Source: Gammaproteobacteria bacterium
GTDB taxonomy: Bacteria > Pseudomonadota > Gammaproteobacteria > JAURND01
NCBI GenBank assembly: GCA_035546635.1
Contig: DASZWJ010000019.1
Location: 229,386 to 293,385, forward strand
Length of the DNA: 64,000 bases
Direction of reading: 5' to 3'
Shown here: in pieces, positions 14,652 through 63,538 of the stretch
Layout: each line of letters starts with the position of its first letter
Numbering within the stretch: position 1 is the first letter of the stretch
Translations under genes and position numbers: made by a program
Notes under the pieces: model-generated
Told to the model about the DNA's origin: nothing
The model's database searches: none
Seen by the model: only the letters and a program-made list of their open reading frames with translations

Positions 14652-14688
14652 CTTTTTTCCTTCTCCCCTTGTGGGAGAAGGAAAAAAG
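14652..14688. repeat. family A-like perfect palindrome immediately after the rluC stop
   Basis: cttttttccttctcccc ttgt gggagaaggaaaaaag has the same loop/core as family A. The stem differs but remains complementary. Confidence 0.75.
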
Positions 14689-14814
14689 CTAGGGCTGTAA
14701 GAGGAAAAAGTTAAGGCTGTAAGAGGCTATAAGAGATTGATGCCTACCCTAAAACATGGTTTAATGCCCTCCCTCAGCCTGGCTTTTGCCAGCATAATAT
14801 TATTTTAATTTTAC

Positions 14815-16743
<1,929 letters not shown>

Positions 16744-21636: not shown

Positions 21637-21687
21637 AGGTTAAACTCGGTGTCTCACCCCCTTTGAAAAAGAAGGTGAAAACAGTAT

Positions 21688-23142
21688 TTATTCAACAACA
21701 TTGCTTAAAAAAGCATCTTTCATTGTGATAGCTAAATTTCGAATATAAGCTTCTAAGCCAGATAACAACTTTTGCTGGCAATTATTCAGCTCTCTTTCTT
21801 GGTATAAATTATGGATAATCTCTAATGCCCCATGAGGTGTCAAACACTTTTCCCCGCGATAATCAACTCGCGCTGCTGCATTAGACGAATAATTCGATAT
21901 TAGATACGCTTTAAATTGTTGCGCTAACTCCGGTGTCAAAAGTTCTGAATAATGCCGGCCTAATATACGCAACATGAGTTGAGATAGGGTAGGGTTAGAA
22001 AATTGCGCAGCAAACTGTATCTTCTTTTCCGGGATAGCATGGTGAAAAAACTGGCATAATTGCTCTTCTTGCTGAGTCAAAAAGCCATTATCATAGAGTG
22101 CTGCATTGGCATCAATACTAGGGATTTTAGGATAAGTATATTCTTTATGATAGTGCATGATATCTTGCAACGCTTGTGGGTTGTTATGCAACCACTGCAA
22201 ATTATCCTGCATAGTTTTCAGGCGTTCAGCTGTGAGGTGTTGGGTAAAACGTGAAGATAGTGGCAATAACAAACCCGGTTCAGCGATTTTTTTGCGCGCA
22301 ACCCAACTGTTTTGGGCAACGGTATCGGAAGTGACATTAATTAATTCTGATTTATCTAGTCGCAACCATAAGCTCTGATTTTTATAATGATTATGCTGAC
22401 CCAATGATAACACCGGAAATTGATACAAATCTTTAGCGCCGCATTCACCAACCATTAAACCCAGATAATGTTGTTGACCATTACCACTAGTCCAAGCAGG
22501 TAATTGCTTAACGCGATGACTATCAATTTTTTTATCATAATAACCCATTGCGTAATGCCACATTTCTGCATCGCGAGCAAATAGGCGTGCAAGTCCCAAA
22601 GTAGCTTCTACATCCACCATGGCATTATGTGCTGCACCTTTTGCCAGTTGATTGGCTGAATTGAGATACTCCAATTTCAGCGTGGGTTTATCATCCAGCA
22701 TTGGCCAATTTAATGCGGTGTTTTTAAATAAATAATAAAGTGTAGCTAAGGGGTAGAGATCAAAGCGACCACATTCATTAGCCCATTGATGGGTATAAGC
22801 AGGTAATAAATTACGATAAAAGGAAAAGCGCAGAAATTCATCATCAAATCCTAAGGTGTTGTATCCGCCGCTTTGAGTTCCTGGCGTATTGAATAGGGTA
22901 TAGATTTTTTCCATTGCAGCAATTTCGGAGCTGCCCTGTAACATAGTTTCGATGGGAATATTATGGATGAGTATCGCTTCTGGGTCAGGAATGACATCGC
23001 AATTGAGTTTTACTGGTATTTCATAGCGTTCCAATTCGTTTAAATCTAAATCTGTGCGAATGGCTGCAAATTGTAGGACTTGGTCAAAACATTTATTTCG
23101 ACCTGTGGTTTCTAGGTCGTAAAATAGATAGGTTTTGGGCAT
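21688..23142 (-). CDS. sbcB: exodeoxyribonuclease I
   Basis: It has the DEDDh Exo I motif YLFYDLETTG and GYNTLGFDDEFLR, with a length consistent with ExoI. I prefer ATG 23142. The track's TTG 23178 would overlap the trpS stop. Confidence 0.85.
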   Translation of the reverse strand: MPKTYLFYDLETTGRNKCFDQVLQFAAIRTDLDLNELERYEIPVKLNCDVIPDPEAILIHNIPIETMLQGSSEIAAMEKIYTLFNTPGTQSGGYNTLGFDDEFLRFSFYRNLLPAYTHQWANECGRFDLYPLATLYYLFKNTALNWPMLDDKPTLKLEYLNSANQLAKGAAHNAMVDVEATLGLARLFARDAEMWHYAMGYYDKKIDSHRVKQLPAWTSGNGQQHYLGLMVGECGAKDLYQFPVLSLGQHNHYKNQSLWLRLDKSELINVTSDTVAQNSWVARKKIAEPGLLLPLSSRFTQHLTAERLKTMQDNLQWLHNNPQALQDIMHYHKEYTYPKIPSIDANAALYDNGFLTQQEEQLCQFFHHAIPEKKIQFAAQFSNPTLSQLMLRILGRHYSELLTPELAQQFKAYLISNYSSNAAARVDYRGEKCLTPHGALEIIHNLYQERELNNCQQKLLSGLEAYIRNLAITMKDAFLSNVVE

Positions 23143-23174
23143 GTGTAGGGAATCCTTTGGTATGCTATGTGTTT

Positions 23175-24182
23175 TCAAAAAGGAGCAGGTATCAGCCCCA
23201 CTGCATCATGCACGCGCTGTAGAATTCTTTGCGCACGTGCTTGCGCTGTTTCTGCGCCACTTCGCAATATATCCTGTAATTTATCAATATCTGCGCGTAA
23301 TTCGTAATAACGTTCGCGCATTGGTCGCAAGTGTTCAATAATTGCCTCAGCCAGATCATTTTTAAATTTACCATAACCGCTGCCCTGATAAGCTTGTTCT
23401 AATTGCGCAATGCTTTGGTGAGTGGTCAATGCAAACAAAGTCAATAAATTGGCAACGCCCGGTTTAGCATCTACATCGTAACGTATCTCATTGCCGGAAT
23501 CGGTTACCGCGCGTTTTAATTTAGTCCGAATCATATCTTCTGAATCTAATAGCGCAATATAATTATGCTGATTGGCATCTGATTTAGACATTTTTTTGGT
23601 CGGTTCTTGCAAACTCATAATGCGTGCACCCTGAGGTGGAATATAGGGTTCAGGAATAGTAAAAATTTCACCATAAAGACTATTGAAACGTAAAGCTACA
23701 TCTCGAGTTAATTCCAAATGCTGCTTCTGATCTTCTCCAACGGGAACTCGATGCGCACCATATACTAAAATATCAGCCGCCATTAACACTGGATAATCAA
23801 ATAGCCCGACATTAATATTGCTTTCATGCTGCTTAGATTTATCTTTAAACTGCGTCATACGGTTGAGTTCACCCAGATAAGTAAAGCAGTTTAAGATCCA
23901 AGCTAGGCGGGTATGTGCCGGCACATGCGATTGTGCAAACAACACATTCTTTTCAGGATCTATGCCACAGGCAATATATAAAGCCAACACATCATAGCAA
24001 CGCTCCAATAATTGTTCAGGATCTTGGCGGACGGTTAAGGTGTGCAGGTCAGCCAGCATAAACAGGCAATCATATTCCTCCTGCATCTTGACCCAATTAG
24101 AGATGGCGCCTGTGTAATGGCCGATAGTGAGCTGACCTGAAGGTTGAATTCCACTTAGCAAAACTGGCTTTGATAGAGTCAT
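23175..24182 (-). CDS. trpS: tryptophan--tRNA ligase
   Basis: It has SGIQPSGQLTIGHY (HIGH-type) and KMSKS. I prefer the start at ATG 24182 (MTLSKPVLLSG) over 24194. Confidence 0.93.
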   Translation of the reverse strand: MTLSKPVLLSGIQPSGQLTIGHYTGAISNWVKMQEEYDCLFMLADLHTLTVRQDPEQLLERCYDVLALYIACGIDPEKNVLFAQSHVPAHTRLAWILNCFTYLGELNRMTQFKDKSKQHESNINVGLFDYPVLMAADILVYGAHRVPVGEDQKQHLELTRDVALRFNSLYGEIFTIPEPYIPPQGARIMSLQEPTKKMSKSDANQHNYIALLDSEDMIRTKLKRAVTDSGNEIRYDVDAKPGVANLLTLFALTTHQSIAQLEQAYQGSGYGKFKNDLAEAIIEHLRPMRERYYELRADIDKLQDILRSGAETAQARAQRILQRVHDAVGLIPAPF

Positions 24183-26110: not shown

Positions 26111-26186
26111 AAGCAGGCACTTCCCTTCTCCCATCCCGCAAGGGGATTCCCTTCGGTCACAGACGGGAGAAGGGAAGTGCCTGCTT
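26111..26186 (+). repeat. family A' hairpin: 22-bp perfect stem enclosing the conserved 32-nt core
   Basis: The stem aagcaggcacttcccttctccc / gggagaagggaagtgcctgctt encloses atcccgcaaggggattcccttcggtcacagac. It lies 27 nt after the stop of the ArnT-like gene. Confidence 0.85.
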
Positions 26187-31660: not shown

Positions 31661-31775
31661 GGCGAAAGTAGTGGGGCAGGGGCTTATCAGACCGTCGGGT
31701 TCATGGATGAATCCGTCGAGCGTACACGGACGTATTCACAGCGTGTCTGATAAGCCCCTGCCCACTACTTTCGCC
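31661..31775. repeat. long inverted repeat (about 31-bp arms, about 52-nt spacer)
   Basis: ggcgaaagtagtggggcaggggcttatcagac (31661-31692) pairs with gtctgataagcccctgcccactactttcgcc (31745-31775), with a single-base bulge. It lies between the convergent comEA and lnt genes. Confidence 0.85.
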
Positions 31776-34905: not shown

Positions 34906-35008
34906 GTCGTCCCGCACTTGTCAGCGGGATCCAGGGAGTCTGGCAGATTTTTTTGGCTTCTTAGCAAGTTTTATCCTCTTCTAGATCTCGCGGAAGCCGC
35001 GGGACGAC
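34906..35008. repeat. family D palindromic element (gtcgtcccgc ... gcgggacgac)
   Basis: It has 10-bp terminal inverted repeats at 34906-34915 and 34999-35008, internal small hairpins, and the gggatccag block shared with family C. Confidence 0.7.
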
Positions 35009-35045
35009 ATAGTAGGGCGCGTGTGACGACAGACCCCAGATTTTA

Positions 35046-35077
35046 TTTTCCTTTTCCCATAAGAGGAAAAGAAAAAG
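35046..35077. repeat. family A-like hairpin (cccataagagg core)
   Basis: ttttccttttcccataagaggaaaagaaaaa lies just downstream of the lapA stop on the minus strand. Confidence 0.55.
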
Positions 35078-35103
35078 TGCAATTCAAAAAACCTGACCAT
35101 TAT

Positions 35104-35412
35104 TCAAGTCTTGTCTGTGGGCTCCAGAGATGAAGTTTCCGCTACAACAGCTTGATTTTTCTCCAATTGTTTTATGTGGTTTTTAAGCGAGCGGTTGCGA
35201 TTTTTTAATTTAAACCAAGGATAAATGGTTGTCAAAAAACCAAGTATAATTCCTATACCCAGGCAATAAACCATTAACAAAGACAATGCAATCTTAGTAT
35301 TTCCAAGATAATAATCTAAAGTGACAGGCGTATCATTACGAACTGCGAAAGTAATGCCTAGCAGTATAATCAGTAGTATTAGTACATAAGAGATGATACG
35401 CATGACTTTCAT
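35104..35412 (-). CDS. lapA: LapA-like (YciS/DUF1049) inner-membrane protein
   Basis: 102 aa with two TM helices and then a basic/helical tail (KLKNRNRSLKNHIKQLEKNQ). It lies downstream of rpsA, the usual lapA neighbourhood. Confidence 0.6.
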   Translation of the reverse strand: MKVMRIISYVLILLIILLGITFAVRNDTPVTLDYYLGNTKIALSLLMVYCLGIGIILGFLTTIYPWFKLKNRNRSLKNHIKQLEKNQAVVAETSSLEPTDKT

Positions 35413-35433
35413 AGAACCTCCTTTTCGCCTTCT

Positions 35434-35585
35434 CCCAAGGGTCGTTGTTGAATAAATCGAATAAATTGAGTGTCAATCTATGTTGGGTGCCATCCGGCTG
35501 AGATTCCGCGACTTGATCGCGGGATCTCAGCCGGATGGCACTAAGCAGAGTAAACCCTTCTTATTTATTCAACAATCCCCAAGGG
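35434..35585. mobile_element. MITE-like element with 13-bp terminal inverted repeats and an 8-bp flanking direct duplication
   Basis: The direct repeat cccaaggg occurs at 35434-35441 and 35578-35585. The TIRs are ttgttgaataaat (35445-35457) and atttattcaacaa (35563-35575). The central 25-bp hairpin spans 35487-35541. No ORF is present. Confidence 0.7.
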
Positions 35586-35619
35586 AAAAAGGAAATGTGA
35601 CCAGTTAAAATAGGCTCCT

Positions 35620-37296
35620 TTACTCTTTGTTATTTTTATCACCTTTAACCTGCTCTCTGAACAAATCTCCTAAAGTAGTGCCAACTATCGGTTCTTTTTT
35701 GGAAGAAGCTTTAGGTTCTTTAGTTTCTTCATCCAAAGCTTTTAAAGACAGATTGAAAATGTTCAGTTTACGATCCACACCGATTAATTTTGCAGTAACT
35801 TCATCTCCGACCTTGAAAAATTCCTGAGCATCTTTCAATTGCTCATGGCTGATTTCAGATACACGCAGATGTCCTTGCAACCCATTGCCCAAATCAATCA
35901 CGGCACGTTTTGCATCTACAGAGGTTACTTGACCATTGACGATAGTACCTTTAGGGTGATCTTCCAAGAATTTTCCGATAGGATCACTTTCTAATTGTTT
36001 AACGCCAAGAGATATACGCTCACGTTCAGGATCAATGGCTAAAATAACTGCTTCCAGTTGATCGCCTTTCTTGTATTTACGGATAGCTGCTTCACCGGTA
36101 TCTTTCCAGGAAATATCTGATAAATGCACTAAGCCATCAATACCCCCTTCCAAACCAATGAAGATACCAAAATCAGTGATGGATTTAACGCTGCCGGAAA
36201 CTTTTTCTCCCTTATTATGATTGTTAGCGAACTCTGCCCAGGGGTTAGGTTGGCACTGTTTCATGCCTAAAGAAATTCGACGTCGCTCTTCATCAATCTC
36301 CAATACCATGACTTCAACTTCCTGACCCGGTTGTACAAGCTTGGCAGGATGGACATTTTTATTAGTCCAATCCATTTCAGACATATGCACCAGACCTTCG
36401 ATACCGTCTTCAATTTGCACAAAACAGCCGTAATCAGTGATGTTGGTGATATTTCCAAATAAATGGGTATTAACTGGATAACGGCGTGCAATATCTAACC
36501 ACGGATCTTCGCCTAATTGTTTCAAGCCCAATGAAACACGTTTTTTATCTCTGTCATATTTGAGCACTTTAACTTTAATTTCATCACCCACTTTCAAGAT
36601 TTCGCTAGGATGTTTTACGCGTCTCCAAGCCATATCCGTAATATGCAGCAACCCATCAATGCCGCCTAAATCAATGAAGGCGCCATAATCAGTAATATTT
36701 TTGACCACACCGGTGAATTCCTGACCCTCTTTCAGGCTTTCCAGTAAGGCTTGTCGCTCGCCGCCTGACTCTTCTTCAACCACAGCACGGCGGGAAACTA
36801 CAATATTATTACGCTTCTGATCCATCTTGATGACTTTAAATTCCAGCTCTTTACCTTCCAAAGCTGCTGCTTCACGTGTAGAACGCAGGTCTACTAAGGA
36901 GCCTGGTAAAAATGCACGCACTGAGTTCAAATCTACCGTAAATCCGCCTTTGACGCGTTCTGTCACTAAACCCATTACCGTCTGCCCTGAAGTGAAGGCT
37001 TTTTCAAGCTGTTCCCAAGCTTCAGTTCTGCGAGCTTTTTCGCGAGATACGCGGGTATTGCCAAAACCATCTTCCAGTGTTTCAACAATGACATTAATTT
37101 CATCCCCAAGCTGTACCGTTTCTCCACGAAATTCTTCTGCTGGAACAACGGCGTCTGATTTCAGGCCTGTGTTTACTGTAATATTTTCAGGGGTAATGCG
37201 AATGATCTTAGCCCGCACTGTGGCGCCGGGTCTAATATCGGCTTGTTTTAAGGTTTCTTGAAACAGGTCAGCGAAACTTTCGTTGGTATTACTCAT
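35620..37296 (-). CDS. rpsA: 30S ribosomal protein S1
   Basis: 558 aa with six S1 repeats (for example [26 protein letters not shown]), downstream of cmk. Confidence 0.97.
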
Positions 37297-37477
37297 TATT
37301 TAAATTCCAGATTCAAATTATCAGCCTCAAGCAATCAGAGGTGAGTTGTAACTGTCATAAATGACAGGGTTAATAATTGCCTTCAGACGATACTTATTCT
37401 AAAGACCCGCATTTTTTAAAACTGAGATAACTGAAAATTATTTAGTCGTTGGCGCGAAATTCAAAAAATGCGCATCG

Positions 37478-37562
37478 TTCCAGCAGGAAGGCCGGATCCA
37501 GTCGCAGGAAAGCGAAACTTTAACTTCCCTGTCAACTGGATCCCGACTCCCTGCCGGGACGG
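37478..37562 (+). repeat. family C element, copy 1
   Basis: ttccagcaggaaggccggatccagtcgcaggaaagcgaaactttaacttccctgtcaactggatcccgactccctgccgggacgg aligns along its length with 63453-63538. It overlaps the cmk 3' end. Confidence 0.8.
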
Positions 37563-44602: not shown

Positions 44603-44619
44603 ATGAACGATGAAGCATT

Positions 44620-44701
44620 GTCATTCCCACCTAGGTGGGAATCTATCCTAATTTTGGCTAGATGCCAGAGAAGAATAGATTCCCGCCTACGCAGGAATGA
44701 C
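44620..44701. repeat. family F composite palindrome built from two ATTCCC-N8-(G/A)GGAAT units
   Basis: gtcattcccacctaggtgggaatctat ... atagattcccgcctacgcaggaatgac has outer and inner inverted repeats. It lies between msrA and hisG. Confidence 0.8.
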
Positions 44702-44740
44702 ATGTTTTTTATATACTTAAATTCACACTAGATAAAGCTG

Positions 44741-45645: not shown

Positions 45646-46956
45646 GTGCATATTCATTTTTGGAATCAGTTATCCGCAATAGAACAGCAAAATCTGCTGG
45701 AAAGACCTAAAGCCAGTCAACCTGACTCAATTCGGGAAAAAACCCAAGCAATTATCGATCAAGTAAGGGAAGAGGGCGATGCAGCGTTAATTGACCTCAC
45801 CGTCCTACACGACAAAGTAAAACTAACCCAATTAACCACTACTTTAGCGGAATTTTCAGCAGCAAAAAATCAAATCCGCAAAGAAGCGTTAGCCGCTATA
45901 GAGCGTGCACAACAGCAGATCACCACTTATCATCAAGCACAACAGCCTGAAATCCGCAAAATTGAAACTGCCCCAGGTATTTACTGTGAGCGTCAGCCAC
46001 GTGCCATTGACAGAGTAGGGCTTTATGTTCCAGGTGGCTCTGCCCCTTTGATTTCTACTTTGCTGATGCTGGCAATTCCAGCACAGTTAGCCGGTTGCTC
46101 ACTCAAAGTCCTCTGCACACCACCGAATAAAAATGGCACTATTGATCCACATTTGTTATATGCTGCAGAGCTGTGTGGTATTCAGCAAATTTTTAAAATC
46201 GGCGGAGCGCAAGCGGTCGCTGCGATGGCCTATGGCACTGAATCTGTACCGAAAGTTGATAAAATCTTTGGGCCAGGAAATGCTTTTGTCCTTGCTGCGA
46301 AAATGTTGGTTTCACAGGATGCCAAAGGTGCCAGTATTGATATGCCTGCTGGTCCATCAGAGCTCCTGGTGATTGCCGATGACAATGCCAATGCAGATTT
46401 TGTTGCTGCAGATTTGTTATCTCAAGCTGAACATGGGATTGATTCGCAAGTGATATTGCTGACCATGTCAGTAGATTTTGCTAACCAAGTTCATGGTGCG
46501 CTTAACCAGCAATTATCCCAGCTATCACGTCGCACAATTGCTGAGCAATCTTTAGCCCATGGCCGTATTATTGTCGTTACCTCTTTGGAACAAGCATTTT
46601 CTATTAGCAATCGTTATGCCCCTGAGCATTTAAGCTTACAAATAACCCACCCAGAGAACTTTCTCACAGAGATTCATAATGCAGGAGCCGTATTTTTAGG
46701 TGACTGGTCAGCTGAAACTATGGGAGACTATATCACCGGTTCTAACCATGTTTTGCCTACTTCAGGTTTTGCGCGCGCCTATAGTGGGTTATCTTTAGTG
46801 GATTTTATGAAGTTTATTAGTTTTCAAAAAGTCAGCCGCCCTGGGTTGCAAGCCCTTGGGCCATTTGCCGAACAATTGGCCGAGCTGGAAGGATTGGATG
46901 CTCACAGAAATGCGGTGTCTATTCGTTTGGGAGTTGACTTTCATCCTGAGCATTAG
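45646..46956 (+). CDS. hisD: histidinol dehydrogenase
   Basis: It has LLSQAEHG and GDYITGSNHVLPT. The start is GTG. The last codons (FHPEH-stop) lie inside family B repeat copy a. Confidence 0.93.
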   Translation: MHIHFWNQLSAIEQQNLLERPKASQPDSIREKTQAIIDQVREEGDAALIDLTVLHDKVKLTQLTTTLAEFSAAKNQIRKEALAAIERAQQQITTYHQAQQPEIRKIETAPGIYCERQPRAIDRVGLYVPGGSAPLISTLLMLAIPAQLAGCSLKVLCTPPNKNGTIDPHLLYAAELCGIQQIFKIGGAQAVAAMAYGTESVPKVDKIFGPGNAFVLAAKMLVSQDAKGASIDMPAGPSELLVIADDNANADFVAADLLSQAEHGIDSQVILLTMSVDFANQVHGALNQQLSQLSRRTIAEQSLAHGRIIVVTSLEQAFSISNRYAPEHLSLQITHPENFLTEIHNAGAVFLGDWSAETMGDYITGSNHVLPTSGFARAYSGLSLVDFMKFISFQKVSRPGLQALGPFAEQLAELEGLDAHRNAVSIRLGVDFHPEH

Positions 46957-47033
46957 TGAAGGATCTCCTTATGGTGGCACTAGCCACATGAAGTACCACC
47001 ATAAGGAGATCCTTCGTTTACGCTCAGGATGAC
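46940..47033. repeat. family B full-length palindromic element, copy a (hisD/hisC junction)
   Basis: The outer 11-bp stem is tcatcctgagc / gctcaggatga. The inner, perfect 20-bp stem is gaaggatctccttatggtgg / ccaccataaggagatccttc. The element contains the hisD stop codon (46954-46956). Confidence 0.9.
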
Positions 47034-49242: not shown

Positions 49243-49850
49243 TTGCGATTATTGATGCCTGTGGGGCTAATTTCGCTTCGGTGGAATTTGCACTTAAACG
49301 CTTGGGGCGAGCAGTGACGCTCACGCGAGATAAAGACATCATTCGCTCAGCATCACATGTAATTCTACCTGGCGTAGGCACTGCCAGCCAGGCTATGCAG
49401 CAATTGGAAAATTTACAATTAATTTCAGTGATTCAGCAATTAACGCAACCGGTATTAGGTATCTGTCTTGGCATGCAGATTTTACATGCCCATTCTGCTG
49501 AAGGCGATGTGGATTGTCTAGGCCTTTTGCCAGGGGATATTAAGCCATTGCCAGAAGATCAGGGTTTACCTATTCCACATATGGGTTGGAATCAGCTATG
49601 CATCTCCCATGCGACCAGTTCTTTACTGCAGGATATCCCGAATAATAGCTACGTCTATTACGTGCATAGCTATGCAGCGCCAGTGACTGAGCATACCCTG
49701 GCTACCACCCAATACGGTGCAATATTTACGGCAGCAGTACATTATAAAAATTTTTATGGGGTACAATTTCATCCTGAGCGTTCGGGAGCGGTTGGCGCTA
49801 AGATATTACAGAATTTTCTTGTCCTGAGCGAAAGCGAAGGATCTCCATAA
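49239..49850 (+). CDS. hisH: imidazole glycerol phosphate synthase, glutaminase subunit
   Basis: It has GICLGMQ (nucleophile Cys) and FHPERS. The C-terminal tail (VLSESEGSP-stop) is encoded by family B repeat copy b. Confidence 0.92.
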   Translation: MIAIIDACGANFASVEFALKRLGRAVTLTRDKDIIRSASHVILPGVGTASQAMQQLENLQLISVIQQLTQPVLGICLGMQILHAHSAEGDVDCLGLLPGDIKPLPEDQGLPIPHMGWNQLCISHATSSLLQDIPNNSYVYYVHSYAAPVTEHTLATTQYGAIFTAAVHYKNFYGVQFHPERSGAVGAKILQNFLVLSESEGSP

Positions 49851-49911
49851 TGTGGCGCCTCATCATAAAAGTGCCATCATACGGAGATCCTTCGCTATCG
49901 CTCAGGATGAC
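49819..49911. repeat. family B full-length palindromic element, copy b (hisH/hisA junction)
   Basis: The outer 10-bp stem is tcctgagcga / tcgctcagga. The inner 13-bp stem is gcgaaggatctcc / ggagatccttcgc. The element contains the hisH stop codon (49848-49850). Confidence 0.9.
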
Positions 49912-63452: not shown

Positions 63453-63538
63453 TCTCCCGGCAGGAGGCCGGGATCCAGGTCGCAGGAAAGCGAAACTGTG
63501 ATGTCCCTATCAACTGGATTTCGGCTTCCTGCCGGGAC
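63453..63538 (+). repeat. family C element, copy 2
   Basis: tctcccggcaggaggccgggatccaggtcgcaggaaagcgaaactgtgatgtccctatcaactggatttcggcttcctgccgggac has the same orientation and architecture as 37478-37562. Confidence 0.8.

Follow-up and report, generated by a model that had tools for sequence, protein, structure and literature searches.

Genomic context of the rpsA-lapA spacer

We analyzed a 64-kb stretch of DNA (hereafter the window) from the MAG of an uncultured gammaproteobacterium. On its minus strand, rpsA is followed by a lapA-like gene (Table 1), and an exact look-up of the LapA-like protein returned nothing on record. The two genes are separated by a spacer of 207 nt, in which lies a palindromic, non-coding block of 136 bp (35442-35577). 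An earlier reading made from the letters of the DNA (the sequence-only reading) had described this block as a MITE-like insertion that fills the spacer at the place where ihfB is expected. The block does lie in the spacer, but together with one copy of its flanking repeat it accounts for 144 of the 207 bases.

In E. coli and many other gammaproteobacteria, ihfB follows rpsA. No IHF/HU homologue was found in the 64-kb window, and ihfB was likewise absent within 10 kb of the locus in three relatives (83-93% S1 identity). Gene order in the relatives is cinA-cmk-rpsA-lapA-(GNAT)-corC-lnt, with rpsA-lapA spacers of 193 nt in L008 (93% S1 identity), 229 nt in L010 (83%) and 176 nt in L011/L012 (83%), and the 13-mer that bounds the window element was absent from the spacers of all three. 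Since relatives that carry no element share the order of rpsA and lapA, have spacers of similar length and lack a nearby ihfB, the absence of ihfB is a trait of the clade unrelated to the element, and the supposed link between the two falls away. The rpsA-lapA gene order is ancestral to this clade.

No clean empty site was found in the three relatives, whose spacers cannot be aligned with that of the window and each contain different palindromes. The L008 spacer holds a member of another palindrome family (about 11788-11860 of L008), which is present in the window at 46941-47032 and 49822-49907 (GTCATCCTGAGCG…AGCGAAGGATCTCC…), so this spacer is a repeated landing place for such elements. In the 83% relative represented by L011 and L012, a GGCGTTGTTGAATAATT element is located just after lnt, and both contigs break off within its first few tens of bases (L011 13907-13944; L012 4763-4792). 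The clade therefore contains the family, and the breaks hint at more than one copy there.

Further long intergenic inverted repeats were observed in the window at 37476-37561 and 63455-63537, 44619-44702, 31661-31775 and 7880-8051. The kinds of long inverted repeat include TCCCGGCAGG…GGATCCAG, TGTCATTCCC…GGGAATGACA and a palindrome with perfect 32-nt arms after lnt. Two of the long intergenic inverted repeats contain the breaks of a short-read contig, L001.

Architecture and copy number of the spacer element

The features of the locus are listed in Table 1. The direct repeat, the 13-bp inverted repeats and the 25-bp hairpin with a G-T pair reported by the sequence-only reading were all present, and its statement that the block has no coding capacity was borne out, as the ORFs crossing the element reach just 42-46 aa and no similarity to a transposase, of the IS903 type or otherwise, was found across the 64-kb window. 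The two cores are complementary at 13 of 13 positions. The central hairpin can be extended imperfectly to 35478-35550, and its top, CCGCGACTTGATCGCGG, is a module also found in two metagenome copies (L042 and L072). Folding of the element as DNA gave -44.7 kcal/mol (z = -12.2 relative to shuffled sequence), and folding of the whole rpsA-lapA spacer as RNA gave -100.6 kcal/mol (z = -9.3).

Table 1. Features of the rpsA-lapA locus, in window coordinates
Feature	Position	Strand	Remarks
lapA-like gene (LapA domain)	35104-35412	-	Downstream neighbour; Pfam PF06305, E = 1e-15
Left arm of split host hairpin	35419-35431	.	TCCTTTTCGCCTT; overlaps lapA ribosome-binding region (minus strand)
Left 8-bp direct repeat	35434-35441	.	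CCCAAGGG; putative target-site duplication, tip of host hairpin
Left terminal four bases (IS903 frame)	35441-35444	.	GTCG vs family GGC[T/G]
Left inverted repeat	35445-35461	+	TTGTTGAATAAATCGAA, identical to IS903B IRL positions 5-21; 13-bp core TTGTTGAATAAAT at 35445-35457
Tandem 9-nt duplication, inner part of left repeat	35450-35467	+	GAATAAATC GAATAAATT; not in IS903B
Central GC-rich hairpin	35487-35541	.	25 bp, one G-T pair, 5-nt loop; arms 35487-35511 and 35517-35541
Right inverted repeat core	35563-35575	-	ATTTATTCAACAA, identical to IS903B repeat positions 5-17
Right terminal four bases (IS903 frame)	35576-35579	.	TCCC (reverse complement GGGA) vs family [A/C]GCC
Right 8-bp direct repeat	35578-35585	.	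CCCAAGGG; second copy
Right arm of split host hairpin	35581-35593	.	AAGGGAAAAAGGA
rpsA (ribosomal protein S1)	35620-37296	-	Upstream neighbour; NCBIfam S1, E = 1.5e-265

As far as could be seen, the element is single-copy. No second copy of the hairpin arm was present elsewhere in the window, and a search for the hairpin core (CCGGCTGAGAT-N(9-29)-ATCTCAGCCGG) in 185,579 species genomes, the source genome not being among them, returned six chance matches in unrelated phyla. None of the metagenome loci from the repeat-pair scan described below shares the interior of the window element. The short-read contig L001 (5.8 kb), obtained by an rpsA look-up, is identical to the window and reads through the element unbroken, which counts against an assembly error and weakly supports a single copy. 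A third exact copy of the 13-mer (21686-21698; GTTGTTGAATAAAT at 21685-21698, minus strand) supplies the last codons and stop (VVE, stop) of the ORF at 21688-23178; it was considered as a solo end and set aside, because it codes for the ORF terminus and has no partner end, and it is probably a coincidence.

The inverted repeats match the ends of IS903

The terminal sequence of the metagenome copies was recognised as the end of IS903, and a 47-nt IS903 end was used as a query against plasmids. Matches of 100% were obtained in at least 5000 plasmids, where they flank genes that carry the annotation "IS5-like element IS903B family transposase". IS903B in a Klebsiella plasmid is 1057 bp long and bounded by 18-bp repeats (GGCTTTGTTGAATAAATC). 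The left end of the window element agrees with the IS903B IRL at 17 of 17 bases (positions 5-21) and the right end with the IS903B repeat at 13 of 13 (positions 5-17), so that the transposase-binding part of the repeat (positions ~5-17) is matched at 13/13 on both sides. Similarity is confined to the repeats, the rest of the element being unlike IS903B. The IS903 repeat has been given as GGCTTTGTTGAATA, and IS903 has been placed in the IS903 group of the IS5 family (PMC8477213); IS903 is reported to generate 9-bp duplications and to prefer palindromic targets (PMC2577343, Table 1). Judged by this identity of sequence, the inverted repeats of the window element are the IS903 terminal repeat (IS5 family, IS903 group). 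A literature search on the repeat sequence returned primers for the Tn903 kanamycin cassette only. IS1, IS6/IS26, IS1595 and ISL3, guessed from the end pattern as possible parents, were dropped, because the repeat is identical to that of IS903 and the transposase encoded at a metagenome locus with the same ends (L056) matches that of IS903B.

A family of short environmental elements with IS903 ends

Metagenomes were scanned for the two 13-mers as a repeat pair at 90-120 nt spacing. The scan returned 77 loci, against an expectation of far fewer than one, and in most copies the repeat extends outward, as GGC[T/G]TTGTTGAATAAAT … ATTTATTCAACAA[A/C]GCC. About 40 of the 77 are termite-gut loci (L018, L021, L022, L025, L033-L036 and about 30 more) and were set aside before the family was counted. 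These are perfect palindromes of ~160 bp in which the 13-mer is present but GGC ends are missing. L018, the single termite-gut contig checked, has no ORF of at least 80 aa. We treat these loci as a separate, probably eukaryotic, MITE family with a 13-mer that is the same by chance.

The remaining family comprises 45 non-redundant short elements in 15 clusters of internal sequence. Of the 90 family ends, 93-94% have G at position 1, G at position 2 and C at position 3, each position taken separately. Among the 32 elements with GGC at both ends, perfect 9/9 direct repeats in frame flank 15, all different from one another (for example TATGTGAAT, ATTTCTAGT, GTTTTAAAG and GCTTCTGCT), and 16 have a match of at least 8/9. 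Such variation between copies shows that in this family the block beside the ends is duplicated target sequence, which varies, and does not belong to the element. The sequence-only reading had proposed a search for copies with different flanking 8-mers; such variation exists family-wide in the 15 distinct perfect duplications, but the particular subtype in the window has no other copy in the window, the 185,579 genomes or the metagenome loci.

An autonomous IS with the same ends, also proposed as a check, is absent from the 64-kb window but is present in the metagenomes, at locus L056 (16-1556). There, a transposase gene of the IS903 group is bounded by GACGTTGTTGAATAAAT ends and interrupted by a nested MITE at 566-698, which has its own duplication (GTTTCAACC). 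The encoded protein is 37% identical to residues 18-316 of the IS903B transposase and has the Pfam domains DDE_Tnp_1_5 and DDE_Tnp_1. The first ~55 nt of the IS and of the nested MITE are equal. Autonomous elements and short derivatives with these ends thus exist together. The L056 ends also enclose an ORF that encodes a GIY-YIG domain. In one MITE subfamily (L023, L061, L072, L076, L077, L080 and L086), the interior consists of an inverted pair of REP-like units (GTAGGGTGGATTAGGCGC…GCCGTAATCCACC).

The flanks are not direct repeats in every member. In eight (L013, L014, L038, L050, L071, L077, L080 and L087) they are inverted, perfectly or nearly so, following the pattern S-X-[MITE]-rc(X)-S', so that symmetrical flanks need not by themselves mean a duplication. 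Such copies suggest either that the duplication was converted to a perfect palindrome at a later time or that the mode of insertion was unusual.

Probable insertion into a host hairpin tip

Small hairpins with the pattern C(C/T)TCTCCC-loop-GGGAGA(A/G)G occur in the window. An intact one, CCTTCTCCC-CTTGT-GGGAGAAGG, is located at 14652-14690, and further intact ones at 700-730 and 8010-8040. Members of the same small-hairpin family were also seen at 5300-5360 and 26118-26180, and two members carry an insert of ~33 nt (ATCCCRCAAGGGGATTCCCTTCGGTCAYAGAC). Directly downstream of one intact small hairpin is a TPP riboswitch (Rfam RF00059, 74 bits) at 14810-14916 (+). When 35442-35585 is removed from the rpsA-lapA spacer, the remaining sequence reads …TCCTTTTCGCCTTCT-CCCAAGGG-AAAAAGGA…, a hairpin of this same kind whose tip is exactly the duplicated 8-mer; its arms, 13 nt each, are 85% complementary.

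Comparable insertions were found in the metagenome family. In L017, the hairpin CCTTCTCC-TTTG-GGAGAAGG is split and CCTTTGGG is duplicated (an 8-bp duplication), and in L023 a CCTCCTCTCCCC hairpin is split with duplication of TGTTTTGTA. The flanks are strongly complementary in 12 of the 46 elements scored, the window element included. This proportion and the insertion at hairpin tips fit the preference for palindromic targets reported for IS903.

The 8-bp repeat itself is perfect and unlikely by chance: a common 8-mer arose in 1e-4 of trials with shuffled 20-nt flanks, and in 1e-5 when it was required to lie within 4 nt of the repeats. The sequence-only reading had placed the 8-bp repeat on both sides of the element. 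Exact copies are indeed there, but they do not abut the 13-bp repeats: 3 nt (TCG) intervene on the left side and 2 nt (TC) on the right side, against an expected 4 and 4, and the 9-mers in frame match at 2/9 positions.

Collectively, these observations make it very likely that a non-autonomous MITE, belonging to the IS903 group (IS5 family), makes up the block at 35442-35577, and that it inserted in the tip of a host hairpin in the rpsA-lapA spacer and later decayed. The transposition footprint proposed by the sequence-only reading is supported by the ends, which are the IS903 repeat, by the varying duplications in the family, and by CCCAAGGG, which is the tip of a type of host hairpin found intact elsewhere. 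In the proposed course of events, the element ends carry the sequence bound by an IS903-type DDE transposase, and the element would have been mobilised in trans, by a transposase encoded at another place in the genome or cell. Insertion would have taken place at the hairpin tip (…CGCCTTCT-CCCAAGGG-AAAAAGG…), with AACCTCCTTTTCGCCTTCTCCCAAGGGAAAAAGGAAATG as the predicted element-free allele, and a staggered cut would have duplicated the tip CCCAAGGG. The outermost bases would have changed afterwards at both ends, beside the G and C runs at the junctions.

Probable decay of the window copy

The ends of the window copy depart from the family pattern. Aligned with IS903, they are GTC(G) on the left and GGG(A) on the right, so that neither begins with GGC, and the T at position 2 on the left and the G at position 3 on the right each occur at 0 of the 90 family ends. 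Of the 8 terminal bases, 3 or more are altered, while all 26 core bases are unchanged and the central hairpin is untouched; an intact core beside altered termini is not explained by uniform neutral decay. The 8-bp repeat is also out of register with the 9-bp duplication of the family, and fits it only if 1-2 bases were lost per junction. A canonical insertion here would give runs of GGGGG and CCCCC at the two junctions, and slippage in these G and C runs may have led to the loss of bases. The altered GGC ends point to a decayed copy and do not count against an IS903 origin.

In IS903 genetics, the GGC end positions are required for cleavage, and Derbyshire, Hwang and Grindley reportedly found in 1987 that the outer three bases of IS903 are needed for a step after binding. 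If so, the copy, with these bases altered, should be immobile, and it is most likely a fixed fossil.

Possible effect on the rpsA-lapA transcript

The region 35000-35800 contains no terminator-like site on either strand, and no T run follows the stem. A scan of the spacer found no promoter-like site; a TTGACA is visible by eye inside the element, without an acceptable -10 hexamer. In Rfam searches with gathering and E-value thresholds, the only matches were to miRNA models with long hairpins, and these stayed below the family threshold. The element is probably neutral debris at present. If rpsA and lapA are co-transcribed, the RNA is predicted to form a rod in which the old hairpin arms pair, the lapA ribosome-binding site included. 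The effect would at most be a very stable stem-loop in the rpsA-lapA read-through transcript, holding the two old arms together.

Alternative explanations

Several other readings of the spacer were weighed against that of a decayed IS903-type MITE. The flanking CCCAAGGG pair might belong to a nested palindrome, in which a pair of IS903-type repeats sits inside a host hairpin whose arms happen to read alike, leaving no footprint of transposition. Such a reading draws on the resemblance of CCCAAGGG to its own reverse complement (6 of 8 positions), on the eight family members with inverted flanks, on the repeat being out of register with the 9-bp duplication of the family, and on the recurrence of CTTCTCC-type flanks at several copies in one metagenome (L013 and L017). 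We consider it unlikely, because each intact window hairpin of this type has just one tip, an 8-mer repeated exactly on the two sides is rare among shuffled flanks, L017 and L023 show clear duplication of the tip in the same type of hairpin, and nearly half of the members with GGC at both ends (15/32) have clean and variable duplications. The block might instead be a structure native to the rpsA-lapA transcript, a regulator or terminator kept by selection and only incidentally like a mobile element. This could be suggested by the stability of the spacer RNA, whose fold includes the lapA ribosome-binding site, and by the palindromes in the spacers of relatives. Those spacers have no sequence in common with that of the window, however; the spacer offers neither a T run nor a terminator-like or promoter-like site, no Rfam family was found at threshold, and the ends are identical to a transposase binding site from unrelated genomes, all of which makes a native structure very improbable.

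The window is full of other intergenic palindrome families, and some of the MITE subfamilies have REP-like GTAGG… interiors, as might be expected if the block were a hairpin element, REP/BIME-like or other, that owed its spread to another kind of enzyme, for example a tyrosine transposase associated with REPs or a hairpin-targeting recombinase of the IS110/IS1111 type. The central hairpin, however, has no other copy in the window or the genome collection, the IS903 repeat is the only part common to other elements, and the family has 9-bp duplications of the DDE type; we regard this origin as more improbable still. Least credible of all is that ihfB was deleted or replaced here and left the block as a scar, which the textbook position of that gene after rpsA and the lack of an IHF/HU homologue in the window might bring to mind. 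It is contradicted by the three element-free relatives, which keep cinA-cmk-rpsA-lapA-corC-lnt with spacers of 176-229 nt and have no ihfB within 10 kb.

Significance and a possible wider family

With the decayed IS903-type MITE as the preferred reading, the odd rpsA-lapA spacer becomes ordinary mobile-element debris, and the suggested link to ihfB is removed. Resistance plasmids of enterobacteria are where the IS903 repeat is best known, but uncultured environmental bacteria also have many small non-coding elements bounded by it, and these elements often lie in the tips of small intergenic hairpins. This may aid the annotation of intergenic regions in MAGs and the study of target choice by IS903-type transposases. 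A bolder proposal, which we put forward tentatively and regard as doubtful, is that a large environmental superfamily of MITEs, as yet undescribed, is defined by IS903-type repeats. It would have at least 15 clusters, many with GC-rich REP-like hairpins, with about a quarter of its members at host hairpin tips and several of these with perfect inverted flanks and no duplication, the latter pointing to hairpin-directed insertion or to later "palindrome correction". The window copy, its ends trimmed at G/C runs, would be one outcome.

Comparison with known systems

The window element resembles REP/BIME, ERIC and Correia elements in being short, non-coding, strongly folding and intergenic. None of these families is known to carry IS903 repeats, and REPs are not known to have terminal inverted repeats or duplications; Correia elements duplicate TA. 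With IS903B the element shares the terminal repeat (GGCTTTGTTGAATAAATC), of which it has positions 5-21 on the left and 5-17 on the right. Insertion in a hairpin tip fits the palindromic targets of IS903 (PMC2577343), and the 9-bp duplication of IS903 fits the family. In contrast to IS903B, which is 1057 bp long and encodes a transposase, the window element is 136 bp long and encodes none, its terminal GGC is altered, and its duplication is 8 bp.

MITEAba12 of Acinetobacter is a non-coding element of 113 bp with GGCTTTGTTGCACAAA repeats (GGCTTTGTTG…) and 9-bp duplications, for which the ISAba12 transposase acting in trans has been proposed as the driver, identity with ISAba12 being limited to the repeats (PMC6382973). 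The window element is likewise short and non-coding, has similar repeats, and is identical to an IS only in the repeats. The two differ in the inner part of the repeat, which is GCACAAA in MITEAba12 and AATAAAT in the window element, and in composition, as MITEAba12 is AT-rich and is described without a central GC hairpin (PMC6382973), whereas the window element has one. MITEAba12 is also present in many near-identical copies and its movement has been observed, whereas the uncultured gammaproteobacterium studied here has yielded one copy of the window element, and that copy is decayed. The window element adds to a kind of element already known, of which MITEAba12 is an example.
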